The position numbers and the translations under genes are program-made. The notes under the pieces are model-generated. The model was given only the letters and a program-made list of their open reading frames with translations. It made no database searches and was not told the DNA's origin. 64,000 bases of DNA from Escherichia coli (GTDB taxonomy: Bacteria; Pseudomonadota; Gammaproteobacteria; Enterobacterales; Enterobacteriaceae), in assembly GCF_050920415.1 (NCBI RefSeq), contig NZ_CP169309.1, one strand, 5' to 3'. This document shows positions 29,988-52,445 of this stretch, piece by piece. Position 1 is the stretch's first letter; each line of letters opens with the position of its first letter.

Positions 29988-29989
29988 GC

Positions 29990-30853: not shown

Positions 30854-30865
30854 GATTTCTTCACT

Positions 30866-31582: not shown

Positions 31583-31601
31583 ATTTATATCCGCCTGGTG
31601 A

Positions 31602-32069: not shown

Positions 32070-32076
32070 CTTGCCT

Positions 32077-33449: not shown

Positions 33450-33453
33450 CGTC

Positions 33454-33846
33454 TTAACCCAGCTTGCCCGAAAGCCCTTCCCAGCCTTCGCGCAGGTTGC
33501 TTAAAATCAGCATCACTTCATCGATTTTCTCTGCCGACAGTTCGCCGCTGGCCTCATACAAGCGATACACACAGTGGTCATAGAGGCGTGAAAGGTTGAC
33601 CACCAGCTCGCCGCCGGTTTCAAATTCCAGCGAACTGGTGAGCGCATTGAGAATGTCGATGCATTTATTGATGCTCTGGGCTTTCTTCTCGAAACGCCGC
33701 CCTTCAATATGACTTTTGGCGCGTTCCAGCTCGTCCATCAGGCCAGAAAACAGCACCAGCACCAGTTCCAGAGGCGATGCCGCCGCTGTACGCGCCGCGA
33801 GATCGATCTCTTTATATTGCGAATAGCCATCCTGTACTTGGTACAT
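33454..33846 (-). CDS. lafC: Flagellin export chaperone FliS-like
   Basis: 130 aa, FliS-like sequence. Confidence 0.8.
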   Translation of the reverse strand: MYQVQDGYSQYKEIDLAARTAAASPLELVLVLFSGLMDELERAKSHIEGRRFEKKAQSINKCIDILNALTSSLEFETGGELVVNLSRLYDHCVYRLYEASGELSAEKIDEVMLILSNLREGWEGLSGKLG

Positions 33847-33868
33847 CTTTAGGGATATTCCTTCTGAG

Positions 33869-35216: not shown

Positions 35217-35233
35217 GGCAAAAGGCGTGCCAA
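35217..35233 (-). promoter_or_regulatory. Sigma-54 (RpoN) promoter upstream of lafB
   Basis: Minus strand reads TTGGCACGCCTTTTGCC (TGGCAC-N5-TTGC); about 30 nt upstream of the lafB ATG, which has a GGAG RBS. Confidence 0.6.
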
Positions 35234-35367
35234 TATTTTTTATGTTAATAATCAATAATTTGAAAAATGGGCGGAAAGCGTGTTTCCGGTTCGGCGGAAA
35301 AGTGCCTGCCGCAAAAAGCACAACACCGCCCGCAGGCGGTATTGAGACTGATGACAAACGCAACACT

Positions 35368-35466
35368 GCCTGATGCGCTGCGCTTATCAGGCCTACAAGG
35401 TTTCTGCAATATATTGAATTTGCAATATTTTGTAGGCCGGATAAGGCGTTCACGCCGCATCCGGCA
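35368..35466. repeat. BIME: two inverted REP units between lafA and lafB
   Basis: gcctgatgcgctgcgcttatcaggcctac ... gtaggccggataaggcgttcacgccgcatccggca. Confidence 0.85.
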
Positions 35467-35474
35467 ATCCCGCA

Positions 35475-36389
35475 CTACTGCAGCAGGCTGGAAACCATGC
35501 TGGACATGCTGTTGGACTGTTTCAGCATGGTGATACCGGTCTGCATCAGCACCTGCTGTTTGGTCATGTTGGACGCTTCCGTCGCGTAGTCGGTATCCAT
35601 AATGTTGCCGATAGCGACTTCGGTGTTGTCCTGCATGCTGGTCAGGTTGTTGGCAGTGTCGTTCAGACGGTTAATAGACGCACCCAGCTTGGATTGGATC
35701 TGCGAAACATCATCCATCGCGGTAGAAATGCTGGTAATCATCTGGTTAGCTGAGCCAGACGCAGTCAGTTCAGTACCGCCAGACACGCCTGCGGTGCCCG
35801 TGGTGTCAGCCTGATCCGCACTAAAGGAGTTGCTGATAGCAGAAAGATCCGTCACCAGCGTGTTCAGTTGGCTTGAAATGTTCACGGTCATGGTATCGGA
35901 AGATTCCGCTCCCACCTGGAAAGTCACCGCGCTCTGGAACAGGCCGTCAGTACCGGTGTTGCTGGTGCCGGAAACACCGAACAGGTTGGTGCCGCCGTAA
36001 GTGGTGTTTTGCAGCATGTCAGACATCTGCTGGCCCAGTTCGTCGTATTCGTCCTGCATCGCCTGCAGGTCATCGTCGCTGTAGGTGCCGTTCGCTGCCT
36101 GAGTTGACAGGTCTTTCATACGACCCAGCACATCAGACATTTCGTCGAACATGCTGTCAGCGGTTTGCAGCATCGCCGTTGCATCATTAATGTTGCTCAG
36201 TGCCACCCCCATACCGCTGGACTGTGCAGTCAGACGGTTAGCAATCTGTTTGCCTGCGGCGTCATCGGCAGAAGAGTTAATCCGGTTACCTGTTGCCAGG
36301 CGTTCCATAGATGTAGACAAAGAAGAACTGCTTTTGCTGATTGCATTAACGGCGGCCATTGAGGCGTTATTGGTGTTAATAGATAACAT
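35475..36389 (-). CDS. lafA: Lateral flagellin
   Basis: Start at ATG preceded by AAGGAG; 304 aa; conserved flagellin N- and C-termini with Ser/Thr-rich centre; the 26 extra codons in the ORF track are upstream read-through. Confidence 0.9.
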   Translation of the reverse strand: MLSINTNNASMAAVNAISKSSSSLSTSMERLATGNRINSSADDAAGKQIANRLTAQSSGMGVALSNINDATAMLQTADSMFDEMSDVLGRMKDLSTQAANGTYSDDDLQAMQDEYDELGQQMSDMLQNTTYGGTNLFGVSGTSNTGTDGLFQSAVTFQVGAESSDTMTVNISSQLNTLVTDLSAISNSFSADQADTTGTAGVSGGTELTASGSANQMITSISTAMDDVSQIQSKLGASINRLNDTANNLTSMQDNTEVAIGNIMDTDYATEASNMTKQQVLMQTGITMLKQSNSMSSMVSSLLQ

Positions 36390-36874
36390 GATACTGCTCC
36401 TTGGGATTAATCGTTTTCGTTTCGATACCCTGTAAAAACGACACCTCAGGCGCAAACTTAAAATCACTATGAAAAAAATTTCGCCACGTATTATCCGATG
36501 CCACTTTTAGCTAAAAAAAGCAGAGGTTAAATTCAGATAAAAAGATTATTAGCAATATCTGCCACATGGCCAGGTATCAAAATATGTCTTTATCAATTGC
36601 TTGATATAGTTAAGATTGTCATCAATTAACGCGTTTTCTTCACAATGTACTGATGCCAAAATTTACATTGCGTTGCAAATAGTACACATTTGGCTATTGT
36701 ACCTGTCCTGTCATTTCGTTACATTCCCACGCCATATAGTGATTAAGAATAATCCTATTACCATAAAATATTAATTATCACGCAGAAAAATCATCTTCTC
36801 AGGGACGTATAAGACTGTGCTTTATGTAAAGCACTATCAGGAACCATTTATCCCTTGCTAAGGTAAACTCAACT

Positions 36875-37717
36875 ATGAGTATTATTATCAACAACTGGCG
36901 GATGGACCCGTCACTCAATGCCTTAATACATTGCGAAACGGGTGAAACACGTCGTCTCGGCGAATACCATTTTATTTTGCTGGAAACATTAGCAAAAAAT
37001 GCCGATGTGGTTTTATCGCGATCTTATTTATGTGCCGAAGTATGGAAGAACCGCATTGTCGGCGGTAACAGCCTGCCGACGGCGATCCATGCGTTGCGCG
37101 TTGCTATCGACGATGATGGCAAACAACAGAACATTATCAAAACCATCCCGAAAAAAGGTTACTTGTGCAATAAAGAGTATGTGTCTTTGCCGGAATCATC
37201 GCCTGCGGAAAAGCTGATGATTACCGACCAGGTACAGAAAACTGTGCCAGAAAAGATATCTTCGACAACACCGCCTTTACCTGGTAGAAAAAAATATAAA
37301 GAAATGATAGGGCTGGCGTTGAGCGCAGCTGTTATTTTTGTTGGCTCGACCGTGGGCTATTCACACTTGAAAAGTACACCTGACGCCCCGCAACTGGTAA
37401 AAGAGTCAATTAACAGTCCAAGAATAAAAATATTTCATTTAACTTCTGCTGGAGAAAATACTTCCGTACCGTTACTATCACAAACCCTCGCACCAGGAAA
37501 AGACAAACTCGATAATTTATTGTCAGCGCATAATATGACAATGACAACCTATTATAAATATGTTCGTAACCGACTGGAGAGTGATATTGTTCTGCGCAAC
37601 CAGTGCAATGGTAGCTGGCAATTAACCTTTAATGTGGAAGGCTGGCAGAACAGTGATATTAATAGCACGATGTATCAGAATTTAGAGAAGTTGTTAAATA
37701 CTGTGCAGAAGTGCTGA
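36875..37717 (+). CDS. lafZ: Membrane-anchored transcriptional regulator, ToxR/CadC-like winged helix plus TM and periplasmic domain
   Basis: N-terminal OmpR/PhoB-type winged-helix region, one TM helix (MIGLALSAAVIFVGSTVGY), AT-rich gene; divergent from lafA. Confidence 0.7.
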   Translation: MSIIINNWRMDPSLNALIHCETGETRRLGEYHFILLETLAKNADVVLSRSYLCAEVWKNRIVGGNSLPTAIHALRVAIDDDGKQQNIIKTIPKKGYLCNKEYVSLPESSPAEKLMITDQVQKTVPEKISSTTPPLPGRKKYKEMIGLALSAAVIFVGSTVGYSHLKSTPDAPQLVKESINSPRIKIFHLTSAGENTSVPLLSQTLAPGKDKLDNLLSAHNMTMTTYYKYVRNRLESDIVLRNQCNGSWQLTFNVEGWQNSDINSTMYQNLEKLLNTVQKC

Positions 37718-37730
37718 TGAATACGAATAT

Positions 37731-37769
37731 ATGCCGGATGCGACGCTAAACGCGTCTTATCCGGCCTAC
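37731..37769. repeat. REP element between convergent lafZ and lafW
   Basis: atgccggatgcgacgctaaacgcgtcttatccggcctac. Confidence 0.75.
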
Positions 37770-37775
37770 CGATAA

Positions 37776-38753
37776 TTACCCCAATAAATTCCTCACCGTC
37801 TGGCTGGAAATTCGCGCCTGACCGTTCACCGCCTGCAATAAAACCTGATAGTTATGATTGGCGCTGTCGAGCACACCGCCGAGATTTTCCGACGCCTGTA
37901 CCGCACTTTCTGTCTGCGGGAAGCGGGACATGCCGTCGATCAACTGGCGGGCCTTTTCCTGCTGCACAGCCATCTTCGCGCGCTGCTGATTAATGTTTTC
38001 TAACGTCTGAGAAATCCCCGCCCCGCCCTGTTGCAGGCTTTGAGCTAACCGCTCAGCCTCAGAGGGTTCGGCAAAGGTTTTTAGTGGCATAAACGCTGAT
38101 TTATCGCCATCGGTGCGCACGCTTAACGTGCGTTCAATGTCAGGCCACTGTTTTTCGGTGGTGGAGAAGCTGATGCCATCCGCTTGCTGATGCAGCTGCA
38201 CGCCTACGCGGCGCAGGGCGTTGGTCAGCCGTGTCTGGTACTGCCCGGCGTTATCATCCTCAGACAGCATCACCGCCGAAAGCTGGGTCTGCCGCCCGTC
38301 AGAAACGCTGAACATCCGCGTTCCCAGTGTGGGGTTGTTGACGAGATTCGCCAAATCCGGCGAGTGAAAGGTCACCCGCGCTTCCCCCTGCAACACCGGC
38401 TGCAACTGGCGGTCCACCGCGCCGCCGGAAAGTGCGGTGCGTTTGTCCAGCATCTGCGTGAGCGCCGTACTCTGCGCCTGCCCGCCCTTACGCAGGCTGT
38501 GACGATAATCGAGCAACTGCTGTTCCAGTTGCCCGAGATAGTGATCCGCCTGCTGCAAGGTGGTGAGCTGGTCGTTAAGCTGCACGCTGTAACGCTGCGG
38601 GCGAGTGGTAATCAGCGGCGAGGCCGGATATTCACTCGCCGTCGCCGGGAGCTTTTGCCGCACCGCCTGAGTGGGCGCAACGGTTGACGACGATACCGCA
38701 GCGCTATGCGCACCGCCGGTGGCGAGTGATGAAGATGTAAGTCCGACCTGCAT
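37776..38753 (-). CDS. lafW: Flag-2 protein of unknown function, LafW position
   Basis: 325 aa, Ser/Ala/Gln-rich; immediately downstream of lfgL in the same orientation; symbol assigned by synteny only. Confidence 0.5.
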   Translation of the reverse strand: MQVGLTSSSLATGGAHSAAVSSSTVAPTQAVRQKLPATASEYPASPLITTRPQRYSVQLNDQLTTLQQADHYLGQLEQQLLDYRHSLRKGGQAQSTALTQMLDKRTALSGGAVDRQLQPVLQGEARVTFHSPDLANLVNNPTLGTRMFSVSDGRQTQLSAVMLSEDDNAGQYQTRLTNALRRVGVQLHQQADGISFSTTEKQWPDIERTLSVRTDGDKSAFMPLKTFAEPSEAERLAQSLQQGGAGISQTLENINQQRAKMAVQQEKARQLIDGMSRFPQTESAVQASENLGGVLDSANHNYQVLLQAVNGQARISSQTVRNLLG

Positions 38754-38769
38754 ACTGTTCCTGAAAGAG

Positions 38770-39597
38770 TTAGAGAACGCTGAATAAATTCAACTCACTC
38801 ACTTTCGAGTAAGTCTTGAGGGTAGCTTCCATTGCCACTTCCAGTCCGGTAAAGGTGATCGACGCAGGGCCGTAATCGAGATCCTGCAATGAACCAATCA
38901 ACTCATCATTAGAGGTAGAGATATCGGTCTGCGCATCGCTCAGCATCGACATGGTGTTTTGTGTCTCGCCGAGCGACGCAATCGAGGCGTTGAGGTCGTC
39001 CGAGGCGGTGTCCACCACATTAACGGCGTTTTGAATATCGCTTTGTACCTGCGGATCTGCCGGGTCAACGTTAGGGTCTTGCAACTCCTGAGAGAGCGAA
39101 TTGAGCGTGTTGAGCACATCTAAATTACTTCCGAAGAAATCGCTCACCGCCACGTTGGTATCCACTTCAACGCCGTTCGACACCGTCGTCTGGCGATGGT
39201 CGCTGTTACCCTGATAGCTGTAGCTATCGGTCACGCCATCACCGTCATCGTCCAACGCCACAATCGGCGGCTGATCGTTGATGGTGCCGCCAAAGACGTA
39301 ATGCCCGTCTTCATCCTGATAGTTGAGCGCCGCCAGCAGGCTGTTGTTGACGCCATCGAGAATCGACTCCTGCTGGCTTAACCCCGCCGACGCAGAGTCA
39401 ATATTGCTTTGATACTGCTCAATCGCCGACTGCTGGCGGTTCAACTGAGTGATGCGTGTGGCGGCGATAGGATCATCCGATGGCTGCAAAATTTCCTTGC
39501 CGGTTGCCATCTGCTCGACCACGTGCGCCAGTTCGCCAGAAAGATTATTAAAACTTTGCGTCATCGAGACGTAGGTTTGTTGAGTGGTTACTCGCAT
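38770..39597 (-). CDS. lfgL: Hook-filament junction protein FlgL-like (HAP3)
   Basis: Start at internal ATG (MRVTTQQTYVSMTQS...) matching FlgL N-termini. Confidence 0.8.
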   Translation of the reverse strand: MRVTTQQTYVSMTQSFNNLSGELAHVVEQMATGKEILQPSDDPIAATRITQLNRQQSAIEQYQSNIDSASAGLSQQESILDGVNNSLLAALNYQDEDGHYVFGGTINDQPPIVALDDDGDGVTDSYSYQGNSDHRQTTVSNGVEVDTNVAVSDFFGSNLDVLNTLNSLSQELQDPNVDPADPQVQSDIQNAVNVVDTASDDLNASIASLGETQNTMSMLSDAQTDISTSNDELIGSLQDLDYGPASITFTGLEVAMEATLKTYSKVSELNLFSVL

Positions 39598-39611
39598 TTT
39601 CGCGCTCCCGC

Positions 39612-40988: not shown

Positions 40989-41051
40989 GTTGGATCCTTA
41001 CCGGTAAATCGTGCCGGATAAAAGCGGCGTGAAGTTGGGGATTCTTAAGTG

Positions 41052-41195
41052 GGAGGGGGTGCGCGCATTGCCCCCTCACCCTAACCCTCTCCCTGAGGGA
41101 GAGGGGACCGATCGAGCACGGTATTGAACAGGGTGCCGGTTTTCTCCCTCTCCCTGTGGGAGAGGGCCGGGGTGAGGGCATCAGCGCGCACCTCC
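41052..41195. repeat. MITE-like composite palindromic repeat, copy A
   Basis: Inverted GC-rich ends (ggtgcgcgc...gcgcgcacc), arms ccctcaccc/gggtgaggg, two internal hairpins ccctctccc-tga-gggagaggg and ctctccc-tgt-gggagag; matches copies B and C. Confidence 0.7.
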
Positions 41196-41197
41196 CC

Positions 41198-41497
41198 TCA
41201 CCTATGCTTCGGCGACAACTGCTTCACAATCATCGCCGCAATCCCTATCCCGTGCTGCTGCGCCAGGGCGTTACACAACTCATCGTCATAAAATCCCTGC
41301 ATCATGCGCACCGAATCGCTGTTAAATGGGTTATCTTTCGAATCAAACAACTCGTTGGTTTTTCGCATCTCTTTGAGCATGTTGCGTAAAAAAATCGCCT
41401 CAAACTGTTCGGCGGCCTGCTTAATATCATTGGCCTGAACCTTCGGCCCCATTAACGCATCGCTGCCGTCAATCCCGCCGCTGGCGTTGACTTTCAT
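41198..41497 (-). CDS. lfgJ: FlgJ-like rod-assembly protein, rod-binding domain only
   Basis: 99 aa resembling the FlgJ N-terminal domain; no muramidase domain. Confidence 0.7.
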   Translation of the reverse strand: MKVNASGGIDGSDALMGPKVQANDIKQAAEQFEAIFLRNMLKEMRKTNELFDSKDNPFNSDSVRMMQGFYDDELCNALAQQHGIGIAAMIVKQLSPKHR

Positions 41498-42612
41498 CAG
41501 ATCACCTCCAGGTCGGCATCCAGCGCGCCCGCTTCATGCAGCGCCTGCAAAATCGACATAATGTCGTCCGGCGTTGCGCCTAAACTGTTCAGCGCATTGA
41601 CCAACGTTTTCAGGCTGCTCGATTCCGGCAAACTCACCACGCCCGGACGGGCATGATTCACCGCGATATTGCTCTGCGGCGTCACCGCCGTGCGCCCGCC
41701 AGCAAAGGCATTCGGCTGGCTGACGTTGCTGGTTTCGTTAATTGAGACGGTCAGGCTGCCGTGCGACACCGCCGCCGCGTGCAGCGCGATGCCATCGCCC
41801 ATCACCACCGTACCGGTACGCGAGTTAAACACCACGCGGGCGCGGATTTTCTCCGCCTGTACCTGCACATCATCCAGTTGCGACATAAACGCCACCCGCG
41901 CGCCGGGGCTGGTGGGCGCACGCACGGTGACGTTGGTGGAACTCTGCGCCGTGGCAATGCCGCCAAACGAGGCGTTGATCGCCGCCGCAATGTTGTTGGC
42001 GTCTTTAAACGACGGACGTTTCAGGTTAAGCGTGATGGTGTCGCCCATCTGAAAATCGCTGGGAATTTCGCGCTCCACCGTCGCGCCATTGGGGATTAAT
42101 CCGGCGGTCGGCGTATTAACCGTTACGCTCGAGCCGCTGGCCCCGGTGGCGTTCATCCCGCCCACCACCACGCTGCCCTGCGCCAGGGCATACACTTCGC
42201 CATCTGCGCCGTGCAACTGGGTCAGCAGCAAGGTGCCGCCGCGAATACTTTTGGCATCGCCAATCGACGAGACGGTGACATCAATGGTCTGCCCGCGCGA
42301 GTACATCGGCGGCAACGTGGCACTCACCGCCACCGCGGCGACGTTTTTCACCTTCGGGTCGATTTTATTTGGCAACTGCACGCCAAACTGGCGCAGCATA
42401 TTGGTGATGGTCTGGTTGGTGAATTTGACCTGGTTTTTATCGCCCGTACCGTCGAGGCCGACCACCAGGCTGTAGCCGACCAGTTGGTTTTCACGCACGC
42501 CCTGTACGTTGACCAGCGACTCCAGCGATTGCGCCAGCGCCACGCCGGGTAGCGCCAGGGTTACGGCTACCATCACCGTTTTTATCCAGTTTTGCATTGC
42601 ACTCTCCGGCAT
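41497..42612 (-). CDS. lfgI: Flagellar P-ring protein FlgI-like
   Basis: 371 aa, signal peptide, conserved [11 protein letters not shown] motif. Confidence 0.9.
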
Positions 42613-43277
42613 TAAATCGGGAACAGAGGATGGTTAAACAGCCGGGTCAGCCAGCCTGCGGCGTTGGCGTCACTTAACGCGCCACGTCCGGCATAGGAGA
42701 TACGGGCATCGGCGATCCGCTGGGAAGAAACCGAGTTGTCATTCTGGATATCGTCGGCGCGCACCAGGCCGCTTAAGCGGATGTACTCATCGCCCTGATT
42801 GAGGGTGAGCCATTTCTCGCCGCGAATTTCCAGGATGCCGTTGGGCTGCACCGCATGAACGGAAACGGTGATCTCCCCGCGCAGGCTGTTCTGCTGCTGG
42901 GAGGTGGCGCTGCCGTCAAAGTCGCGGTTGGCGTCGATGGAGCCGGAAAGGTTATTTTTGGTGTGACCAAATACCGTTGGCGCGGTAATATCGACGCTGT
43001 TGCTTTTGCCAAAGTTGGTTTTCGCCTGTTTGCTCGACTGGGTGGATTCTTCGAGGATCACTGTCAGAATATCGCCCACGCGGTAAGCCCGCCGATCGGC
43101 GGTTAGCGACCAGTTGTAGCCCGTTTCAAACAAGCCCCCGGCACGCCCGTCTGCCGGAGGCGGCGCTTCGGTTTTCGGTGGCGCAAAGTATGCGTCGTCT
43201 TTTTTGACCAGAATGGCCTGCGATTCACACCCGCTAAGCAGGGGAAGCAGCGCCACCAGCCAGAGATAATTTTTCAC
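42612..43277 (-). CDS. lfgH: Flagellar L-ring lipoprotein FlgH-like
   Basis: 221 aa, lipoprotein signal (LLSGC). Confidence 0.9.
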
Positions 43278-43326
43278 GTTCTGCCTGTTTAGTGTTGCAG
43301 GCCACGGGGGTGGCCGGTTGTTTGGT

Positions 43327-43473
43327 GGGTGCGGAGCTGTTTGTTCCCCCTCACCCTAACCCTCTCCCTCAAGGGAGAGGGGACTGACCTGTGCGCGTTG
43401 TTACATTGTGCACCGCTTTTCTCCCTCTCCCTGTGGGAGAGGGCCGGGGTGAGGGCATCAGGCCGCACCGCCC
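43327..43473. repeat. MITE-like composite palindromic repeat, copy B
   Basis: Same architecture and near-identical core as copy A; lies between lfgH and lfgG. Confidence 0.7.
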
Positions 43474-43481
43474 TTAACGCC

Positions 43482-44267
43482 TTACAGCGTCTGACTGATG
43501 TACTGCAACATATCGTCCGCCGCCGAAACCATTTTGGCGTTCATCTCGTACGCGCGTTGCACCGTAATCATCGCCACCATTTCGTTGACGATATCCACGT
43601 TCGAGCCTTCGAGCGCATTGTCCTGCAAGGTGCCAAGCCCATCTTCGCCCGGTACGCCTTCGGTCGGCTGACCGCTGGCGGCGGTTTCCAGATAGAGGTT
43701 GTCGCCCTCGGCGGAAAGCCCCGCCGGGTTGGCGAAGTTCACCAGCGTCAGTTGCCCTAACTCGGTCACGTCGCTGTCGCCGGGTAAGATAGCCGTCACC
43801 GTACCGTCCTCACCAAACGCAACATTCGTCGCCCCCGCCGGAACGTCGATTTCCGGCTGCAATGGCAAGCCCTGCGAGTTGGTTAGCACGCCGTCGGCAT
43901 TCACCTGCAAATTGCCGTCGCGGGTATAGGCGATATCGCCGTTGGCCTTTTGCACCTGCAAAAACCCCTGCCCCATAATGGCGACATTCATCGCGTTGTC
44001 GGTGGTTTCGACGTTGCCTTCGGTAAAGGTTTTCTGAGTGCCGACAATGCGCACGCCGCTACCGAATTGCAGCCCGGTCGGCATGATGTTGTTCTGGTCG
44101 AGCATCGCGCCCGGCGCTTCCTGGGTCTGGTAGAACAGATCCTGAAACATCACCCGGTCGCGCTTGAAGCCGGTGGTGTTAACGTTGGCGATGTTGTTGG
44201 CAATCGCGCTCATTTCAGCATCCTGCGCCGAGAGGCCGGTTTTGCTGATCCATAATGCTGCGTTCAT
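43482..44267 (-). CDS. lfgG: Distal rod protein FlgG-like
   Basis: 261 aa, FlgG N-terminus (MNAALWISKTGLSAQ...). Confidence 0.9.
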   Translation of the reverse strand: MNAALWISKTGLSAQDAEMSAIANNIANVNTTGFKRDRVMFQDLFYQTQEAPGAMLDQNNIMPTGLQFGSGVRIVGTQKTFTEGNVETTDNAMNVAIMGQGFLQVQKANGDIAYTRDGNLQVNADGVLTNSQGLPLQPEIDVPAGATNVAFGEDGTVTAILPGDSDVTELGQLTLVNFANPAGLSAEGDNLYLETAASGQPTEGVPGEDGLGTLQDNALEGSNVDIVNEMVAMITVQRAYEMNAKMVSAADDMLQYISQTL

Positions 44268-44293
44268 GGTGCTTTATTCCCTGATGTCTGTTA

Positions 44294-45031
44294 TCACGAG
44301 CCGCGCAATAAGCGGTTGCCCGCGTCGCTGATATCTTCGGCAGTTTTCATCATCTTGATCTGCGCTTCAAACTGGCGATTCATGGCGATGGACGACATCA
44401 TTTCGCTCACCGCCGAGACGTTGCTGCCTTCGAGAAAACCGCCGCTGACTTTGATGTTTTCATCGCGCTGGGCCGGAATGCCGTCGCTAGTCACCAGCAT
44501 CCCTTCAGGATTTTTCGCCAGGTTAGCGACAGGGATATCCACCAGCTTCAGGCGGTCGATATCCATCGTGGCGGTCACGTCGCCGTCATCGGGCGTCACC
44601 GAGAGCGTGCCGTCGCTGCCAAAAGAGGCGATGGCGTTCGGCGGCAGAATGATCGGGCCGTTATCCCCCAGCACCAGATTGCCGTCGATGGTCAGTTGCC
44701 CCTGATCGTTCTGCTGAATATTGCCGTTGCGGGTATAGACTTCGTTGCCGTTTTTATCCTGCACCGCAATGTAACCCGCCCCCTGAATCGCCACGTCCAG
44801 CGGGCGTTCGGTTTTCTCCGCCACACCCGTGCTGTCGTTCACGCCGCTGGCCCCTTCCTGCGCCATATAGCGCGTGTCGAAGCCGCCACCTTTCACCTTG
44901 TCGTTGGTCGCCATCGCCATATCGGCGCGAAAACCGTTGGTGTTGACGTTCGCCAGGTTGTTGGCGCTAATCTGCTGCTCATACAACGTCTGCGAAGCCC
45001 CGCTCAGGGCGGTATAAATCAGGCGATCCAT
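44294..45031 (-). CDS. lfgF: Proximal rod protein FlgF-like
   Basis: 245 aa with rod-protein N- and C-terminal motifs. Confidence 0.85.
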   Translation of the reverse strand: MDRLIYTALSGASQTLYEQQISANNLANVNTNGFRADMAMATNDKVKGGGFDTRYMAQEGASGVNDSTGVAEKTERPLDVAIQGAGYIAVQDKNGNEVYTRNGNIQQNDQGQLTIDGNLVLGDNGPIILPPNAIASFGSDGTLSVTPDDGDVTATMDIDRLKLVDIPVANLAKNPEGMLVTSDGIPAQRDENIKVSGGFLEGSNVSAVSEMMSSIAMNRQFEAQIKMMKTAEDISDAGNRLLRGS

Positions 45032-46233
45032 TACATTGCCTGGAACAGCGCGTCATCGAGCTGCGTGCTGGTGGCGATAACTTTGGTGTTGGCCTGATAG
45101 TTACGCTGGGCGGTCATCAGGTTAACCAGTTCGCTGGTGATATCGACGTTAGAGCTCTCAAGCGCTCCCGACGTGAGCGTGCCGCAGGTGCCGGAGCCGG
45201 GAACACCAATCAGTGGCGTGCCGGATTCCCCGGTTTGTACCCACGCGGTGCCGCTTACGGCTTGTAGGCCATCATCGTTAGGGAACGTCGCCAGCACTAC
45301 CTGCCCCTGCAACATGCGCTCGCCGTTGCTGTAGGTGGCGTAAACTTTGCCGTCGTCATCGACCTGCACACCGTTCTGAGTGGCAGAGGCGTAGCCATCG
45401 GCGGCGTTGGTGGTAACCGAGAAGTCAGAGCCGTATTGCGTACAGGTGGAGTAATCGACGGTCAAATCGATGGGCGCGGCGGCGTCGGTCTGAAACTCAA
45501 TGGTCTGCGGGGTGGTGGGCGAAGTCAGTTTTCCGGTATTCGGGTCGAAGGTTAAGGTCGTCGCCGGAACACCGGTCTGCTGCTGACCGTCGAAGGTGTA
45601 CTGCACTTCCCAGGTGTTATCGCTGGTTTTGGTGAAGTACTGGCATACCGAGTGTTCGTTACCTAATGAGTCATACACCGTGGTGGTGTAACTGTCGGTG
45701 TACGAACTGCTGTTGGTCGGATCGAACGGCACGGTAGTGCGGTCGATAGCGTCGTCGCTGGCATCGAGGTTGGCGGTAAAGGTCAGGCTGCTGCTGGCCT
45801 GCGCCGGGATATTGCCGGTTTTGATCTGGATATCCGTCACCGTACCGGTTTGCAAAGTGCCGCTGTCATCGACCGGATAGCCCTGCAAATAAGCGCCCGA
45901 GGCGTTGACGATATAGCCGTCTTTGTCCGTTTCAAACGATCCGGCGCGGGTATAAGAGATGTTGCCCGCGCTGTCGCACATCACAAAAAAGCCGTCGTCG
46001 TTAATCGCCAGATCCAGCGCATTACCGGTGGAGACCAGCGAACCGCCGCGCGAAATACTTTGCGCGGTGCCCGCCACGCTGACGCCCATTGCCTGGCTTC
46101 CGGCATACATGGCTGAAAACTGGGTAGTCATCGACTTATACCCCACCGTTCCGGCGTTAGCGATGTTGTTACTGATCCCGTCCAGCTGTTCGTTAACGGC
46201 ATTCAGCCCCGTTGCGGCAATTTCATAACTCAT
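45031..46233 (-). CDS. lfgE: Hook protein FlgE-like
   Basis: 400 aa with FlgE-type termini. Confidence 0.9.
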   Translation of the reverse strand: MSYEIAATGLNAVNEQLDGISNNIANAGTVGYKSMTTQFSAMYAGSQAMGVSVAGTAQSISRGGSLVSTGNALDLAINDDGFFVMCDSAGNISYTRAGSFETDKDGYIVNASGAYLQGYPVDDSGTLQTGTVTDIQIKTGNIPAQASSSLTFTANLDASDDAIDRTTVPFDPTNSSSYTDSYTTTVYDSLGNEHSVCQYFTKTSDNTWEVQYTFDGQQQTGVPATTLTFDPNTGKLTSPTTPQTIEFQTDAAAPIDLTVDYSTCTQYGSDFSVTTNAADGYASATQNGVQVDDDGKVYATYSNGERMLQGQVVLATFPNDDGLQAVSGTAWVQTGESGTPLIGVPGSGTCGTLTSGALESSNVDITSELVNLMTAQRNYQANTKVIATSTQLDDALFQAM

Positions 46234-46256
46234 TGTTTCTTCCTGTTAATTGATTC

Positions 46257-46970
46257 TTACGCCACATCACTGTCGGCATCGGGTACGCCAAACTGGCTAA
46301 TCATGGTGAACGGCACTTCGCCCACACCTGCAACGTTGAGCACCGGAGAGCTGCCGTCGAGCGGGATACGTACATCCTCCACTTCGCCGGAGACTTCAAT
46401 CGGTACCTCTTCTTCCCCGGTGTTGGTCACCACCGAAACGTCGTAATCACCCGGCGGGATGCCGTAATCCGCCGGATTAATCGAGAAATCAACCTGGCCT
46501 GGTCCAACCGACGAACTCCCTTCCGGGATCAGCGAGACGGTGTAGTCATCGCCCGCGGCATCGGTAAAGTGGAGTTCGGCGGTGGTACAGGCGTCGTCCA
46601 GTGTGGCGCGACCGTTAATGGTCTGGTCACTCACCTGCAAGGCGGTGGTCTGCACCATAATGTCGTCGCCCACCAGGTTGCCGAGCGCCATCACCTGAAT
46701 GTTGCTCATCAGCACCGCGTTGGTATTGGCCTGCACGCTCATCTCTTCCATCATCGCCACCTGCGCCATCGACGAAAGCTGGTCGATATATTCGGTGGCA
46801 TCGGTCGGGTCGGTCGGGTCCTGGTTTTGGATCTCGGCGACAAACAGCGTCAGAAAGGTATCAACGGGCGAGCTATCGCTGCTGCTTGTCGTGTCGCTGG
46901 CCGCCACAGTGTTGCTTTCCGCCGTGGCGGTCGGCTGCGGTGATTGCGCATTCAGCGCCAGGGTATTCAT
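46257..46970 (-). CDS. lfgD: Hook capping protein FlgD-like
   Basis: 237 aa FlgD-like. Confidence 0.8.
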   Translation of the reverse strand: MNTLALNAQSPQPTATAESNTVAASDTTSSSDSSPVDTFLTLFVAEIQNQDPTDPTDATEYIDQLSSMAQVAMMEEMSVQANTNAVLMSNIQVMALGNLVGDDIMVQTTALQVSDQTINGRATLDDACTTAELHFTDAAGDDYTVSLIPEGSSSVGPGQVDFSINPADYGIPPGDYDVSVVTNTGEEEVPIEVSGEVEDVRIPLDGSSPVLNVAGVGEVPFTMISQFGVPDADSDVA

Positions 46971-47401
46971 CAGGCTTCTCCCAGTTTCAGCAGGCTTTGC
47001 TGCATACTTTTCACGTTGTTGAGCACATCGACGTTAGTTTCAAAATCGCGCGAAGCCGACATCATGTCCGCCATCTGTTCCACCACGTTGACATCGGGAT
47101 ACCAGACATCACCGTTGGCATCCGCCAGCGGCGAATGCGGTTCATAGCGTTTCACCGCCCCGCCGGTTTGCAGCACGTCCTGCACCTGCACGCTGGCACC
47201 GTCAATGGCATGGCGATGCGTTCCCGCCAGCAAGCTGTGGTGATAGACCGCCGCAAACACCGGGCTGCGCGCTTTATACGCCTGCGCCTCGCTGCCAGCG
47301 GGCGCATTGGCATTTGCCAGGTTACTGGCAACGGTATTCAGACGTAGCGTTTGCGCCGTCATCGCCGAGCCGGAAATCTGATAGATATCAGTAAATGACA
47401 T
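46970..47401 (-). CDS. lfgC: Rod protein FlgC-like
   Basis: 143 aa, FlgC N-terminus (..ISGSAMTAQ..RLN..ASNLANANAP..). Confidence 0.9.
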   Translation of the reverse strand: MSFTDIYQISGSAMTAQTLRLNTVASNLANANAPAGSEAQAYKARSPVFAAVYHHSLLAGTHRHAIDGASVQVQDVLQTGGAVKRYEPHSPLADANGDVWYPDVNVVEQMADMMSASRDFETNVDVLNNVKSMQQSLLKLGEA

Positions 47402-47403
47402 GC

Positions 47404-47739
47404 TTATTTCCCTTCAATGGCCTCTCTGATGCCGCTGATTTGCAGATTCAGAAAGGTCAGACTGCTTTGATAATCCATACTATTTTGTGAAAACCGCGCC
47501 TGTTCGCTGTTCAGTTCCACGGTGTTACCATCTTCCGATGGCTGCATCGGTACGCGATACTGGACATCCACCGCCGCGTTATTTGCCCGTTGCATCTCCC
47601 TGGCAAAATCAATATCTTTAGCCTTGAAATTTGGCGTATCGACATTCGCCAGATTCGCAGTCAGTAGCTCGGTCCTCTCAAGACGTAACTTCACTGCCTG
47701 CGGATGTACTCCCAATGCTTGTTGAAAACTGATCCCCAT
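47404..47739 (-). CDS. lfgB: Rod protein FlgB-like
   Basis: Start at internal ATG with GGAG RBS, aligning with canonical FlgB N-termini; the longer ORF-track start would sit on the promoter. Confidence 0.85.
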   Translation of the reverse strand: MGISFQQALGVHPQAVKLRLERTELLTANLANVDTPNFKAKDIDFAREMQRANNAAVDVQYRVPMQPSEDGNTVELNSEQARFSQNSMDYQSSLTFLNLQISGIREAIEGK

Positions 47740-47776
47740 TTCTTGCGCCACTCCCGCTTCAATCCGCATACGCTAA

Positions 47777-47792
47777 GCAATCGCTGTGCCAA
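47777..47792 (-). promoter_or_regulatory. Sigma-54 (RpoN) promoter of the lfgB-L operon
   Basis: Minus strand reads TTGGCACAGCGATTGCT (TGGCAC-N5-TTGC) about 40 nt upstream of the lfgB start. Confidence 0.6.
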
Positions 47793-47820
47793 TTTTTAAG
47801 TGACTGATGAGAAAGGGTTT

Positions 47821-48558
47821 ATGAGGTTTCAATTTTGCAGGCGGAAGTTGTATTTCCTCCTGGCGCTGGCCTTACCGGGCTACGCCGCCGTCCATCCCGT
47901 GCAACATAGCGCGCGGGAACAAATCAACGCCCAGGTGCTGAATGCCGCGAGCCAGCAGATTGAATCGCTGGCGCAACAGCGGCAGTGGCATGACTATCGC
48001 TACACCTTTAAGGTCTACATTCCCTCGCAGATTGCGACCGCCGCGCCCTGCGCTACGGCCCCCGGCGTCACGCTGACGTCGCCTGCGGAAATCGCTCTCA
48101 ACCGGATGAACTTCACCGTCAGTTGCCCGCAAAGCTGGCAGATGAACGTTGCGGTGCGCCCGGATGTTCTGGTGCCGGTGGTGATGGCGAAGTCACTGGT
48201 TGCCCGCGATACGCCGCTCACGGCAAATGATGTGGAGCTGAAGCCCTACAACGTCAGCGCCCAGCGGCGGGATGTGCTGATGGATCTCAATGAAGCGATT
48301 GGTTTAAGCAGCAAACATGCCCTGCAACCAGGCAGGCCGCTTACCAAAGAAGAACTGGTTTCGCCAGTGCTGATCGAGCGCGATCAGCCGGTGATGATTG
48401 TTTACCAGAGCGCGGGGATCACCGCCTCGATGCCCGGCGTGGCGCTGAAAAATGGTCGCAAAGGGGAAATGGTGAAAGTACGTAACGCCAGCAGCCAGCG
48501 GGTCATTAGCGCGATGGTGGCCGAAAGCGGCGTGGTGACAACGGTAAGCGCGGAGTAA
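47821..48558 (+). CDS. lfgA: P-ring assembly chaperone FlgA-like
   Basis: Signal peptide and SAF-type C-terminal domain; divergent from lfgB; start at second ATG. Confidence 0.75.
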   Translation: MRFQFCRRKLYFLLALALPGYAAVHPVQHSAREQINAQVLNAASQQIESLAQQRQWHDYRYTFKVYIPSQIATAAPCATAPGVTLTSPAEIALNRMNFTVSCPQSWQMNVAVRPDVLVPVVMAKSLVARDTPLTANDVELKPYNVSAQRRDVLMDLNEAIGLSSKHALQPGRPLTKEELVSPVLIERDQPVMIVYQSAGITASMPGVALKNGRKGEMVKVRNASSQRVISAMVAESGVVTTVSAE

Positions 48559-48746
48559 TTTGCTTCGATACCGCGTAGCATATGTATGACTATCTCCCAA
48601 TATTATGACTTTCTGACAAATTTCATCGTGTCTTTTGGATAATTATTGAGCACTCAATCACTACTGTTTAAATATCCAGATGGTAACTATTTCATCTGGG
48701 TCAAATGAGTGATACTGTATCACCAATAAGACCTATGGGGGATGCT

Positions 48747-50171
48747 ATGTCTGAATTTGAATTACTCGTGAAAGATCTTCTTTTAAAATCAGAAGAAGAC
48801 GAGAAAAAGCGACAAGAAAAAGATCGAGAATTAATTTCAAAGGTCCTTGAAATCTATGATCAAAAATATGTTGCAGAACTCTTACGAAAACTAGGAAAAA
48901 ATGAATGGAGCAGAGAAACACTTAACCGTTGGATAAATGGTAAGTGCAATCCTAAGCAATTAACTTCTGCGGAGGAAACTTTACTCCGCAAGATGCTTCC
49001 AGAACCTCCTGAACATCATCCTAACTACACATTTCGTTTTATTGATTTATTCGCAGGGATTGGTGGTATTCGTAAAGGTTTCGAAAACATTGGTGGACAG
49101 TGTGTTTTTACCAGCGAATGGAATAAAGAAGCGGTAAGAACCTACAAAGCTAATTGGTTTAATGATGAACTAAATCATAAATTTAATCTTGATATACGAG
49201 AAGTCACTTTAAGTGATAGAGATGATGTTTCCGAAGTAGAAGCCTATAATCATATAGACAAAAATATTCCAGATCATGATGTCCTTCTGGCCGGTTTTCC
49301 ATGTCAGCCCTTTAGTCTGGCTGGGGTAAGCAAGAAAAACTCTCTGGGGCGTGCACATGGTTTTGAATGTGAGGCACAAGGAACACTATTTTTTGATGTC
49401 GCTCGGATTATTAAATCAAAAAAACCAGCTATTTTTGTGCTTGAGAATGTGAAAAACCTTAAAAGTCATGATAAAGGTAAGACTTTTAAAGTCATCATGG
49501 AAACACTCGATGAATTAGGATATGAAGTCGCCGATGCTGGTGTTACTGGCTCAGATGATCCCAAAATTATAGATGGAAAACATTTTTTACCCCAACATCG
49601 TGAGCGTATAGTGTTGGTAGGATTTCGTAGAGATCTGAATATTCACAAGGATTTCACGTTACGAAACATTAACCGCTTTTACCCTCAAAACAGGCCAACA
49701 TTTGGTGAATTATTAGATCATGATGTTGACGATAAATATATTTTGACTCCAAGGTTATGGGAATATCTTTACAATTATGCAAAAAAACATGCAGCAAAAG
49801 GCAATGGGTTTGGTTTTGGTTTAGTGGATCCTAAAAATCCAGATAGTATCGCAAGGACTCTGTCTGCTCGTTATCATAAAGATGGCTCTGAAATATTGAT
49901 TGATCGTGGCTGGGATAAGGCTGTCGGTGAAATTGACTTTAGTAATCCAGCGAATCAAGAGCATCGTCCAAGAAGACTGACACCTCACGAATGTGCCAGG
50001 CTAATGGGTTTTGAAAAACCAGGGGGAAGACCTTTTAGAATACCTGTATCGGATACACAAGCCTATAGACAATTTGGGAACTCAGTTGTTGTTCCAGTAT
50101 TTGAAGCTGTAGCAAGATTACTAGAACCATATATACAAAAGGCAGTCAATATGCATATTATTAACGATTAA
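48747..50171 (+). CDS. DNA cytosine-5 methyltransferase, EcoRII/Dcm family (CCWGG specificity predicted)
   Basis: Motifs [30 protein letters not shown]; near-colinear with the M.EcoRII/Dcm sequence as I recall it; GGGGA RBS before the ATG; AT-rich relative to flanks. Confidence 0.9.
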
Positions 50172-50194
50172 TAATAATTAATTTTCACTATTGT

Positions 50195-50217
50195 GAGGCC
50201 TTTTTATTAAAGGCCTC
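50195..50217. terminator. Bidirectional hairpin terminator between the convergent M and R genes
   Basis: gaggccttt-ttatt-aaaggcctc flanked by A/T runs. Confidence 0.5.
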
Positions 50218-50257
50218 TAAATATATAATCATGAGTTTTTACAAGTATGTTTTTATA

Positions 50258-51463
50258 TTATACAAAATCTTCATAAAGCGTTATTAACTGTGTAATAAAA
50301 CCATCTAATGTTAATATTTCCTCCCTGATTTCCTCCGGGTATTTTTTATGAAGAGGGGAAGGTACAACCAAGGTGACACCTTCAGCTCTCATTTCGTTAA
50401 ATTGAGCAACAGAGACACCCTCTTGCAAGGTAAACAAATATATCTTGTTGATTTTATTTGCTTCATTAAGCGCCTGTCGCCACCGATCCTTACATGTTGT
50501 TTTTACAGCAAGCATACGGAGTTTTTCTCTTGGAAAGTGATCATCATGGTAAGCTGCCGCTGATGGGAAAAGAAAATCGGGTTTCTTTTTTCCTTCAGTA
50601 ATACATTGAGTAGCAAAATGATGCAGTCCATGCTCAATAAAAATTTGCTCAAGATGTAGCTCCAGTGATTTCCCGGCTCGAGATTTTCTTCTATTACTAA
50701 CAGAGTTAGCCATAGCTATAAAATCATCTACAGAACCAAATCCTTGACGGATGATGTCCAGTACGTGAATTTCTTCAACCATTAGAAAGAGATCATATTC
50801 AATACGGCGGCGTTCTAAAAGTTGGTCATCTGGACTGGTTACGCCTGTTGGGTAATAACCTGCCGCATATTGGATAATATCTAAGCCAGAAGGAAAACTA
50901 TGTTTCCAGCTTTCCGGAATAACATATTCCTTTTGAGAGATTTTTGGCCTTGATGCGAGTACACCAAGTATTTCACTGGCAGGCCCAAACATTAAAGTTC
51001 CTGGAATGATCTCCCCAACAGCTGATTCCAGTACATCCTCTTCTTCTGGGCTTACACAAACCCATACATCAACACTTTTGCTGTCTCTCCCAGGCTCATG
51101 TTCAAACGCAAGCACAGACAAAGCACCTGTATTTTCCGGATCTTGTAGGGGACTGCCAGCCCCCCACCGAGTGATACGTTTTTCATTTCTTGTTTGCCCG
51201 AAATACTTATTATTGTAGTAAATAGCGCGAACCTCACTGTCTACACATTCATGAGAGGAATAAGTTGCGCGCAATAAAACCGAAGGATTTTTTTCTGACG
51301 TATGATCTATAGATGGGAAAAGTTCACCGACGATACCGGAAGGGATATATACCCCCACTTGATGCCCTCCTGTTGCACCAGTGTCGTTTGCTGAAAGACG
51401 TTTGATATAGAGATAATTGTTACCACCGACCTTATCAAGCAGCCAATCTTGTAATCCTGACAT
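50258..51463 (-). CDS. Type IIE restriction endonuclease, EcoRII family
   Basis: 401 aa; long conserved blocks matching R.EcoRII as I recall it (YIKRLSANDTGATGGHQVG, RNEKRITRWG, SPLQDPENTGAL, SVSNRRKSRAGKSLELHLE, KPDFLFPS, LRMLAVKTTCKDRWRQ); convergent with the methyltransferase. Confidence 0.85.
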   Translation of the reverse strand: MSGLQDWLLDKVGGNNYLYIKRLSANDTGATGGHQVGVYIPSGIVGELFPSIDHTSEKNPSVLLRATYSSHECVDSEVRAIYYNNKYFGQTRNEKRITRWGAGSPLQDPENTGALSVLAFEHEPGRDSKSVDVWVCVSPEEEDVLESAVGEIIPGTLMFGPASEILGVLASRPKISQKEYVIPESWKHSFPSGLDIIQYAAGYYPTGVTSPDDQLLERRRIEYDLFLMVEEIHVLDIIRQGFGSVDDFIAMANSVSNRRKSRAGKSLELHLEQIFIEHGLHHFATQCITEGKKKPDFLFPSAAAYHDDHFPREKLRMLAVKTTCKDRWRQALNEANKINKIYLFTLQEGVSVAQFNEMRAEGVTLVVPSPLHKKYPEEIREEILTLDGFITQLITLYEDFV

Positions 51464-51633
51464 AAGACATCCTTATTTTTGCATAGTATCCGATTCAGAT
51501 TTTTCCACATATCCATCAGAACGACCAGAACCAACATATCTGAACAAAAAGTAAATATGCGATAACGATTAAAGTTTTGCCGCCTGTTAACCGCTTTACC
51601 GGAGTAACCACCCAATACCGAGACGAGGTTGCG

Positions 51634-51912
51634 ATGAAAATCACCCCGACGATGCCAGGCAATCGCCCGACAGCCACAACGGCAGGCTCCAGCCAGCCGC
51701 GTAAAAGTACGGCGACCACCACCACGACGCTGAGTGCCGACGACATTACCCAGGCGGGATTGCAGTCTGCCCAGCAAACGCTGAACGACCAGCAAGAGAG
51801 CGATATCGACAGCGATAAAGTGGCGCAAATGCAGGCGATGCTGGCGTCCGGCAGCCTGCAAGTGGACACCGAACAGTTAGCCAGCGACATGCTGAGTTTT
51901 TTCCAGAACTAA
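51634..51912 (+). CDS. lfgM: Anti-sigma-28 factor FlgM-like
   Basis: Start at internal ATG with GAGG RBS; about 92 aa, Thr/Ser-rich N-terminus, C-terminal sigma-binding-like helix. Confidence 0.7.
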   Translation: MKITPTMPGNRPTATTAGSSQPRKSTATTTTTLSADDITQAGLQSAQQTLNDQQESDIDSDKVAQMQAMLASGSLQVDTEQLASDMLSFFQN

Positions 51913-51924
51913 GAGGCCGATGAA

Positions 51925-52353
51925 GTGAGTATCCGGTTACAACAGGTGAAGGCGTTGTTGCAGGGCATTCGTGACGATGACGCGCTGTACGATTCCCTGC
52001 GCGAACTTCTCCAGCGTCAGCGGATCTGCATGATTCGCCGCGCCAGTGAAGAGTTGCTGGCGGTAAACGACGAGATAACGCAGCACTATGAGCAGTTGCA
52101 TGGACATAGCCATCAGCGCCATAGCCTGCTGAAAATGCTCGGTGTTAGCGTCAATCGTGACGGTCTGGCGCAGGTGTTTGCCTGGCTTCCGGCGGTACAA
52201 AAAGCGGCAGCACAACAGTTGTGGCAACGCCTGGAGCAAAAAACGGAACGCTGCAAAGCCTATAACGATAAAAACGGCGAGCTGTTGATTCGTCAGTATG
52301 AATTTATTCAGTCTTTTTTAGGCAGCGAAGCGGATTTTCTGTATCAGGAATAA
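51925..52353 (+). CDS. lfgN: Flagellar export chaperone FlgN-like
   Basis: GTG start 8 nt after AAGAGG; 142 aa helical; follows lfgM. Confidence 0.65.
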   Translation: MSIRLQQVKALLQGIRDDDALYDSLRELLQRQRICMIRRASEELLAVNDEITQHYEQLHGHSHQRHSLLKMLGVSVNRDGLAQVFAWLPAVQKAAAQQLWQRLEQKTERCKAYNDKNGELLIRQYEFIQSFLGSEADFLYQE

Positions 52354-52430
52354 CGCGAATACCTTCCCCATAGCGGAAACGGATTTTCCGCCTGATTTCC
52401 AATCCTTTGTTTTTGATTAAAAAAATTCCC

Positions 52431-52445
52431 GGCACGCTTATTGCA
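52431..52445 (+). promoter_or_regulatory. Sigma-54-type promoter upstream of the 309-aa hypothetical gene
   Basis: GGCACGCTTATTGCA (GG-N10-GC spacing, TTGCA -12 element) about 35 nt before the ATG at 52480. Confidence 0.45.

Follow-up and report, generated by a model that had tools for sequence, protein, structure and literature searches.

Three conserved sigma-54 promoter elements and a candidate LafK enhancer in the Flag-2 lateral flagellar locus of Escherichia coli

In Vibrio parahaemolyticus and Aeromonas hydrophila, LafK and sigma-54 activate the class II genes of the lateral flagellar system, including fliA_L; loss of lafK lowers the activity of PflgB_L from 970 to 20 Miller units, and the fliM_L operon is LafK-independent (PMC5013049, PMC4481668). 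As relayed by the same two articles, the A. hydrophila hierarchy of Wilhelms et al. 2013 comprises sigma-70-dependent class I genes (fliM_L, lafK), LafK-dependent class II genes (flgB_L) and a sigma-28-dependent class III gene (lafA). RpoN (sigma-54) motifs have been predicted at flgB2 and lafB of V. parahaemolyticus (PMC9817140), and Francke et al. placed LafK, like PspF and HrpR/S, among the activators that have no signal domain (PMC3162934). Regulation of Flag-2, the lateral-type flagellar locus of Enterobacterales, is essentially unstudied though the locus is widespread there. Here we analyze a 64,000-nt stretch of E. coli DNA (contig NZ_CP169309.1; hereafter the window) that carries the Flag-2 locus, flanked by dinB and yafL. 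An initial annotation of this DNA had proposed that sigma-54 motifs place the lafB operon, the lfgB operon and an unknown gene for a 309-amino acid (aa) protein under RpoN/LafK-type control, in a cascade like that of Vibrio lateral flagella. The data below support this proposal, identify the unknown gene as lafV, and add a candidate LafK-binding sequence.

All three motifs were found where they had been placed. On the minus strand, TGGCACGCCTTTTGC spans positions 35218-35232, 32 nt ahead of the lafB ATG (35185), and TGGCACAGCGATTGC spans positions 47777-47791, 37 nt ahead of the lfgB ATG (47739). On the plus strand, GGCACGCTTATTGCA lies at 52431-52445, 35 nt ahead of the lafV ATG (52480). At every site the GG (-24) and the GC (-12) are exactly 10 nt apart within the TGGCAC-N5-TTGC pattern. 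The resulting -24/-12 elements, P_lafB (TGGCACGCCTTTTGCC, 35217..35232, minus strand), P_lfgB (TGGCACAGCGATTGCT, 47776..47791, minus strand) and P_lafV (CGGCACGCTTATTGCA, 52430..52445, plus strand), have predicted start sites near 35206, 47765 and 52456, respectively. Given the start site predicted for P_lfgB, an ATG at 47769 is excluded as the lfgB start. P_lafB precedes the predicted lafB-C-D-E-F-S-T-U operon (29064..35185, minus strand), which comprises fliD, fliS, fliK and fliL homologues, the sigma-28 gene lafS and motAB homologues; P_lfgB precedes the rod, hook and ring genes lfgB-C-D-E-F-G-H-I-J (41198..47739, minus strand). RefSeq also lists a 91-aa hypothetical protein (WP_237710166.1, 35178-35453, minus strand) overlapping P_lafB and the upstream elements described below (palindrome, lafA terminator and repeat); this is very likely a spurious open reading frame (ORF) call.

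A sigma-54 weight matrix, our own approximation of the published consensus, was run over both strands of the window plus an extension (76 kb in total). The three sites were the top three hits, with scores of 17.6, 16.5 and 15.2, and no other top hit was both intergenic and placed 32-37 nt ahead of a start codon in the same orientation. Hits of the next ranks within Flag-2 were all intragenic. A sigma-54-like match, TGGCATTCCGCTTGCT (31082-31097, minus strand; score 14.3), lies inside lafS, 229 nt upstream of the motA homologue lafT, and has no palindrome of the kind described below. The scan gave no comparable site ahead of lafA, lfgK, lfgM, lfgA, lafK or lfiM. A count of exact TGGCAC-N5-TTGC matches yielded 2 against 0.29 expected, with 4 of 100 shuffles reaching 2 or more, and tolerating two mismatches produced no enrichment (73 against 85.5 expected). 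By itself the match count is thus weak evidence; conservation was decisive against chance matches.

Conservation was assessed in 80 Flag-2 loci, one genome per species, fetched with LfgH as query from Escherichia, Citrobacter, Enterobacter, Kluyvera, Yersinia, Pantoea, Erwinia, Rosenbergiella, Tatumella, Serratia, Budviciaceae and others. An element was scored as present if the matrix gave at least 13 within 200 nt upstream of the gene, a level reached by background at 0.024 per 200 nt. Such an element preceded lfgB in 77/77 loci, lafB in 51/51 and the orthologues of lafV in 16/18. Twelve other Flag-2 gene classes (lafA, lfgK, lfgM, lfgN, lfgA, lafW, lafZ, the glycosyltransferase gene, lfgC, lfgJ, lfiJ and lafC) had it in 0-2 loci each. 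GG and GC were the same in every locus, unlike the spacer sequence and the spacing to the start codon, which varied. This is the pattern expected for functional -24/-12 promoters, and we take the three motifs to be real, conserved sigma-54 promoters as judged from sequence. The two lafV exceptions are Enterobacter loci (L020 and L023) in which the gene lacks the sigma-54 promoter and begins 27-30 nt after lfgN. Promoter turnover has presumably moved lafV and the glycosyltransferase gene of these loci into the late lfgMN unit, to be read from the late lfgM promoter.

When the upstream regions were aligned on the -24 GG, a dyad emerged with the consensus aaGCGGAAa-N5-tTTCCgc. Each of the three promoters has a palindrome of the form GCGGAAA-N5-TTTCCGC 41-54 nt upstream of the -24 GG, with a site resembling the binding consensus of integration host factor (IHF) in between. 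In the window, the P_lafB copy occupies 35271..35289 (core GGAA-N7-TTCC at 35273-35287), 41 nt from the GG; the P_lfgB copy occupies 47841..47859 (core 47843-47857), 52 nt from the GG; and the P_lafV copy, GCGGAAA-CGGAT-TTTCCGC, occupies 52373..52391 (core 52375-52389), 41 nt from the GG. The exact core was present in 50/51 lafB, 67/77 lfgB and 15/16 lafV promoters, against an expectation of 0.02 per 130 nt. Across loci, the gap to the -24 GG measures 41-44 nt at lafB, 52-54 nt at lfgB and either 41-42 or 50-52 nt at lafV; spacing differs between promoter classes by about one helical turn (10-13 nt across genera). Half or more of the promoters of lafB and lafV have a third half-site, TTCC, 7-8 nt further upstream. 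Its representatives in the window are TTTCCGCC at 35293..35300 (minus strand), 8 nt upstream of the P_lafB palindrome, and the TTCC at 52364-52367. The short motif TTTCCGCC taken alone was set aside as not diagnostic, for it occurs 13 times window-wide against 3.6 expected, also inside genes; the full dyad was used instead.

Within the dyad, the half-sites hardly vary in their letters and the five central positions are random, with no compensatory changes. Since the letters themselves are kept and not just their complementarity, the palindrome has the hallmarks of a protein-binding site rather than of an RNA stem. The 76 kb of window and extension contain only five exact cores, three of them at the three promoters, and the 80 loci (about 1.6 Mb, both strands) contain 136 composites of palindrome and promoter, 134 of which are at the three gene classes. 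A near-perfect palindrome, GCCGGAACGTCGATTTCCGGC, is also present inside lfgG (43840-43854); it has no promoter partner, is common to only eight closely related loci and is probably a coding coincidence.

The interval between palindrome and -24 element was searched for the IHF consensus WATCAANNNNTTR. Exact matches, at fixed positions, were found in 16/51 lafB, 2/77 lfgB and 9/16 lafV promoters (0.003 expected); when up to one mismatch was allowed, the figures rose to 26/51, 47/77 and 16/16 (0.056 expected). In the window, P_lafB has an exact match (AATCAATAATTTG, 35250..35262, plus strand), P_lafV a site with one mismatch (52400..52412, minus strand) and P_lfgB a weak IHF-like site with two mismatches (47797..47809, minus strand), at the promoter class where 47/77 loci have one mismatch at most.

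The sigma-54-dependent activator that the initial annotation had noted at the window edge is LafK. The 3' part of its gene occupies 63608..64000 on the minus strand, just upstream of fliE_L (lfiE), and the remainder lies past the window end. The 328-aa protein consists of a Sigma54_activat domain (E = 2e-64) starting at residue 6, with GAFTGA and Walker motifs, and a C-terminal Fis-type helix-turn-helix (HTH_8); it lacks a sensor domain as well as the N-terminal receiver-like domain of the Vibrio protein. Its closest solved relative is the AAA+ domain of FlrC. Enterobacterales orthologues measure 325-348 aa and have the same domains, HTH_8 being kept in all, and nearly all of the top 120 hits listed in a homologue search were Enterobacterales-like in length and domain set.

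The same arrangement was seen in Vibrio campbellii, on chromosome 2 (filed as a plasmid in PLSDB). At flgB_L, GGAA-N7-TTCC lies 42 nt before TGGCATGCATCTTGTT, accompanied by a perfect IHF consensus; at fliD_L, the palindrome lies 54 nt before GGCACACATCTTGC. The LafK homologue of this species (locus L086, 26432-27745) has 440 aa, including a degenerate receiver-like N-terminal domain (Response_reg, 22 bits, below cut-off) that the 325-348-aa enterobacterial proteins lack. Two further candidates for comparison were set aside: an Aeromonas caviae hit turned out to be the polar flgB, and a V. breoganii plasmid encodes a different system without these motifs.

Because LafK is the regulator shared by the Vibrio and Enterobacterales lineages, we tentatively assign the palindrome to it. 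Nothing relevant on a binding site of LafK came up in literature searches, and GCGGAAA-N5-TTTCCGC was absent from the papers searchable. It is likely, by analogy with sites of NtrC type, that this sequence is a previously undescribed LafK enhancer, kept from Vibrio to Enterobacterales at a distance of 41-44 or 52-54 nt to the -24 GG; an IHF bend would lie between the two, and at lfgB the site falls within the signal-peptide codons of lfgA.

Separate control of the flagellin gene lafA had been suggested on the grounds that it lacks a sigma-54 element and is parted from the lafB promoter by a bacterial interspersed mosaic element (BIME). On both counts the suggestion held. The matrix found no sigma-54 element at lafA in the window, nor in any of 63 other loci. 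The BIME, a pair of repetitive extragenic palindromic sequences with a central motif, is real: it lies just after the lafA stop codon (35365..35472), and in 5425 of 5426 E. coli genomes this 108-nt stretch is found at 40 or more places. Its central part (35389-35431, minus strand) scores above the Rfam gathering threshold for ES036 (CssrF small RNA), a match that is probably repeat-derived and not a distinct small RNA gene. An intrinsic terminator of lafA with a 10-bp stem and a T run (35321..35344, minus strand) sits upstream of the candidate lafB enhancer. As read from these elements, lafA is predicted to be insulated from P_lafB by the BIME and the strong terminator.

In place of a sigma-54 element, lafA has a conserved motif of sigma-28 type that emerged only on aligning orthologous upstream regions. 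Its pattern, TTAA(G/A/T)-N14-16-(G/A/T)(C/T)CG(C/T)T, was present ahead of lafA in 51/62 loci, lfgK in 64/77 and lfgM in 16/24, and in 0-2 loci at each of nine other gene classes (background 0.017 per 200 nt). The window copies are TTAAGTTT-N11-GTCGTTT ahead of lafA (36436..36461, minus strand) and those ahead of lfgK (41022..41048, minus strand) and lfgM (51569..51596, plus strand). The standard E. coli FliA pattern, TAAA-N15-GCCGATAA, gave nothing convincing ahead of these three genes with up to two mismatches. The late motif, with GTCGTTT or GCCGCTT as the putative -10, resembles a sigma-28 promoter and supports separate late control of lafA. The gene for a FliA/WhiG-family sigma factor that would read it, lafS, lies within the sigma-54-driven lafB operon.

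Altogether, these data make it probable that the three sites are the middle-class (class II) promoters of E. coli Flag-2, driven by LafK and sigma-54 with the help of the palindromic enhancer and an IHF bend, and followed by LafS-dependent late promoters. In the proposed mechanism, RNA polymerase containing sigma-54 would bind the -24 GG and -12 GC without being able to open the DNA unaided. LafK, an AAA+ protein without a sensor domain whose activity is presumably set by the amount made, would bind GCGGAAA-N5-TTTCCGC, centred about 50-60 bp upstream of the -24 element, via its Fis-type helix-turn-helix. Bending at the IHF-like site would then allow LafK to contact the polymerase and drive open-complex formation. 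LafK would in this way switch on three sets of genes: lfgBCDEFGHIJ for the rod, hook and rings; lafBCDEFSTU for the filament cap, the chaperones, the control of hook length, the stator and the sigma-28 factor LafS; and, for flagellin modification, lafV, probably joined by the glycosyltransferase gene. LafS would subsequently read the sigma-28-type promoters of lafA (flagellin), lfgK-L and lfgM-N. Neither a sigma-54 nor a sigma-28-type motif precedes lafK or the lfiM operon, which would therefore belong to an earlier, LafK-independent class. The proteins bound, the start sites, the operon extents and the activity of the system in this strain are all predictions drawn from elements whose position, conservation and specificity were observed directly.

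The third unit differs from what had been proposed in that its first gene is not unknown. FliB-like genes named lafV have been described in Flag-2 variable region 1 of 342 out of 592 strains (PMC6993521), and the 309-aa gene (52480..53409, plus strand) belongs to them. Its product has no Pfam match, yet residues 31-281 align to positions 107-364 of the FliB profile NF038110 of NCBIfam (E = 2e-11). At 43.8 bits the match misses the cut-off of 85 bits and does not cover the profile over its full length: the first 100 or so positions have no counterpart in LafV, and the ORF can be extended upstream by only 13 codons. On this alignment, LafV is a distant, N-terminally shorter relative of FliB and a putative lateral-flagellin lysine N-methylase. 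The 814-aa GT2 glycosyltransferase gene (53597..56041, plus strand) is syntenic with lafV in 18/18 loci. The gap between the two measures 24-103 nt in 14 of the 18 and 116-194 nt in four Escherichia/Pseudocitrobacter loci; in the window, where a boxC-like repeat pair is inserted, it measures 187 nt and contains no convincing intrinsic terminator. Co-regulation of the two genes with flagellar assembly, as initially proposed, thus stands as far as the promoter and synteny are concerned, and their co-transcription is judged probable from the arrangement.

Several observations weigh against this reading of the three sites. The lafV element begins with C instead of T, and the -12 element of V. campbellii flgB_L is TTGT, not TTGC. 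In V. parahaemolyticus, purified RpoN gave no shift of the lafB promoter in an electrophoretic mobility shift assay (PMC9817140). Assignment of the palindrome to LafK derives from co-occurrence and from analogy to NtrC-type dyad sites. The P_lfgB palindrome sits in the signal-peptide region of the divergent lfgA gene (codons 8-13), and its conservation could in part be coding. Protein conservation does not explain it, however, because the rest of the LfgA N-terminus has diverged too far for alignment in most loci; the constant frame of the palindrome within lfgA (77/77) was dropped as evidence, as homologous elements inside coding sequence always stay in frame. Eight Erwiniaceae-type loci (L037, L048, L049, L058, L074, L075, L079 and L082, at about 9900-9980) have an orphan palindrome, GGCGGAAG-N5-CTTCCGCC, 5-20 nt past the stop codon of lfgG. 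No sigma-54 element is present within 120 nt of this copy, which may be either a further LafK site or an RNA hairpin. Our searches of the literature on Enterobacterales Flag-2 promoters found no expression, start-site or binding data, and the supplementary data of a Yersinia pseudotuberculosis RpoN ChIP-seq study list no flagellar entries. Some E. coli strains are described as having a non-functional Flag-2 (PMC4481668).

The last of these points leads to the alternative that fares best, namely that the elements are conserved relics in a strain whose Flag-2 is silent, for instance because lafK is never expressed or the locus is silenced. The locus has indeed taken up insertions (the EcoRII/Dcm pair, BIMEs and boxC-like repeats) and, compared with the nearest genome, lfgL shows an in-frame deletion of 34 codons. 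Yet all Flag-2 genes are annotated as intact, with no pseudogene flags, in a near-identical genome; promoter, enhancer and IHF elements are all intact in the window; and Flag-2 expression has been seen in Yersinia enterocolitica, according to a report cited in PMC11420993. We consider silence unlikely, and it would concern the activity of the elements, not their identity.

Less probable still is a scheme in which the sigma-54 promoters are genuine and the palindrome has a binder different from LafK, candidates being the ToxR/CadC-like protein LafZ, encoded beside lafA, and a host factor, with LafK acting from solution or from another site. LafZ, a winged-helix protein with a Trans_reg_C domain, is a second Flag-2-specific regulator; binding of LafK to the palindrome is a prediction; and some sigma-54 activators act without an enhancer, FlgR and FleT being so listed (PMC3162934). 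However, no LafK orthologue has lost HTH_8, and the palindrome is strictly coupled to sigma-54 promoters, as seen in the tally of composites, and retained in Vibrio, with which Enterobacterales have LafK in common. Fis-type helix-turn-helix dimers of NtrC-family activators typically recognise dyads with a 5-nt centre, whereas winged helices of the OmpR/ToxR type usually bind direct repeats. LafK remains our preferred binder.

It is very improbable that the palindromes are RNA hairpins, serving as terminators or stabilisers of upstream transcripts, instead of DNA-binding sites. A simple scan did rate the lafB palindrome as terminator-like (a 6-bp stem followed by CCCATTTTTC), and the position of the orphan copy right after the lfgG stop codon would suit such a function. 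But hairpins would call for complementarity and not for the fixed half-site letters observed; the lfgB palindrome is antisense within lfgA, with no co-directional upstream gene to terminate; the spacing to the -24 element is constant for a given promoter class; and lafA already has a strong terminator upstream of the lafB palindrome. Finally, chance occurrence of the three sigma-54 motifs, in spite of the unimpressive match counts, can be dismissed, since the elements are kept at orthologous positions in about 80 species with diverging flanks, are absent at other gene classes and are coupled to the palindrome.

As to the setting, gene order in the window runs lafU-T-S-F-E-D-C-B, lafA, lafZ, lafW, lfgL to lfgB and lfgA, followed by an EcoRII-type enzyme and a Dcm methylase, lfgM-N, variable region 1, lfiJ to lfiE and lafK; lfiM-N-P-Q-R and then lfhB-A lie past the window end. 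Variable region 1 contains lafV, the glycosyltransferase gene, two hypothetical genes and a cytidylyltransferase gene. Most of the region is found in 1105 of 5426 complete E. coli genomes (about a fifth). Compared with the chromosome of E. coli strain MFDS1022581, the window shows 8 mismatches across 41 kb aligned, besides a 102-bp difference in lfgL (38770-39597). Here the window lacks 102 bp (34 codons, in frame) present in NZ_CP169399.1, at 39327-39335; the two alignment blocks share 9 nt, suggesting a slippage deletion, or an insertion, at a 9-bp direct repeat.

The Dcm-type cytosine methylase and EcoRII-type restriction enzyme genes (48747-51463) are inserted between lfgA and lfgM and part lfgA from lfgMN. 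Such an insertion has been described in Flag-2 of 21 Escherichia strains (PMC6993521). It is absent in the nearly identical locus of Pseudocitrobacter vendiensis (L003), whose Flag-2 proteins are 96-100% identical to those of the window (LfgH 99%; LfgB, LafB and LafA 100%; LafV and the glycosyltransferase 97%). Such identity far exceeds what separate genera would be expected to show, and points to a recent horizontal transfer or to misassignment of the genome. The boxC-like repeat pair (CCCTCACCCCGGCCCTCTCCCACAGGGAGAGGGAG ... GGGAGAGGGTTAGGGTGAGGG) has three copies in the window, in the lfgJ-lfgK gap (41040-41200), the lfgG-lfgH gap (43330-43470) and the lafV-glycosyltransferase gap (53430-53545). 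In locus L002, a BIME occupies part of the lafK-lfiM intergenic region (2340-2430), and a HicA/HicB toxin-antitoxin pair follows lfhA directly at the locus edge (8939-9566).

The analysis provides three specific promoters, each with its predicted start site, a candidate sequence for LafK binding and a proposed consensus for sigma-28-type late promoters, and it ties flagellin-modification genes to the flagellar programme. If the enhancer assignment is correct, the composite motif would define the LafK regulon from sequence, limited within Flag-2 to three operons of which one is lafV with the glycosyltransferase gene, and could serve to find LafK targets outside the flagellar locus.

Compared with known systems, the arrangement follows the V. 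parahaemolyticus hierarchy in having a sigma-54 promoter ahead of flgB_L/lfgB and of fliD_L/lafB, the sigma-28 gene inside the fliD_L/lafB operon, and an fliM_L/lfiM operon without a sigma-54 element. It departs from it at lafA, for which an RpoN site has been predicted and binding reported in V. parahaemolyticus (PMC9817140), in contrast to 0/63 Flag-2 loci, and in possessing an additional LafK-type promoter for lafV and the glycosyltransferase gene. The putative -10 of the late promoters, GTCGTTT or GCCGCTT, differs from the GCCGATAA of E. coli FliA. The A. hydrophila hierarchy, as far as it is relayed in the articles cited above, is matched by the lack of sigma-54 and sigma-28-type motifs at Flag-2 lafK and lfiM, which fits a LafK-independent class I. 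With classical IHF-aided sigma-54 promoters (pspA with PspF; glnHp2 and nifH with NtrC or NifA), the Flag-2 promoters share an upstream dyad, here the candidate activator site, a predicted IHF bend and the -24/-12 element, and LafK is like PspF in having no sensor domain (PMC3162934). They differ in presenting a single dyad, joined by one half-site at lafB and lafV, centred about 50-60 bp from the -24 element as opposed to the usual 80-150 bp. LafV resembles Salmonella FliB in aligning to the flagellin lysine N-methylase profile and differs from it in scoring below the cut-off, with some 100 N-terminal positions unmatched. In conclusion, these results leave the known picture of lateral flagellar regulation unchanged: the E. 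coli promoters follow the logic described for Vibrio and Aeromonas, and any novelty would be confined to the candidate LafK enhancer.

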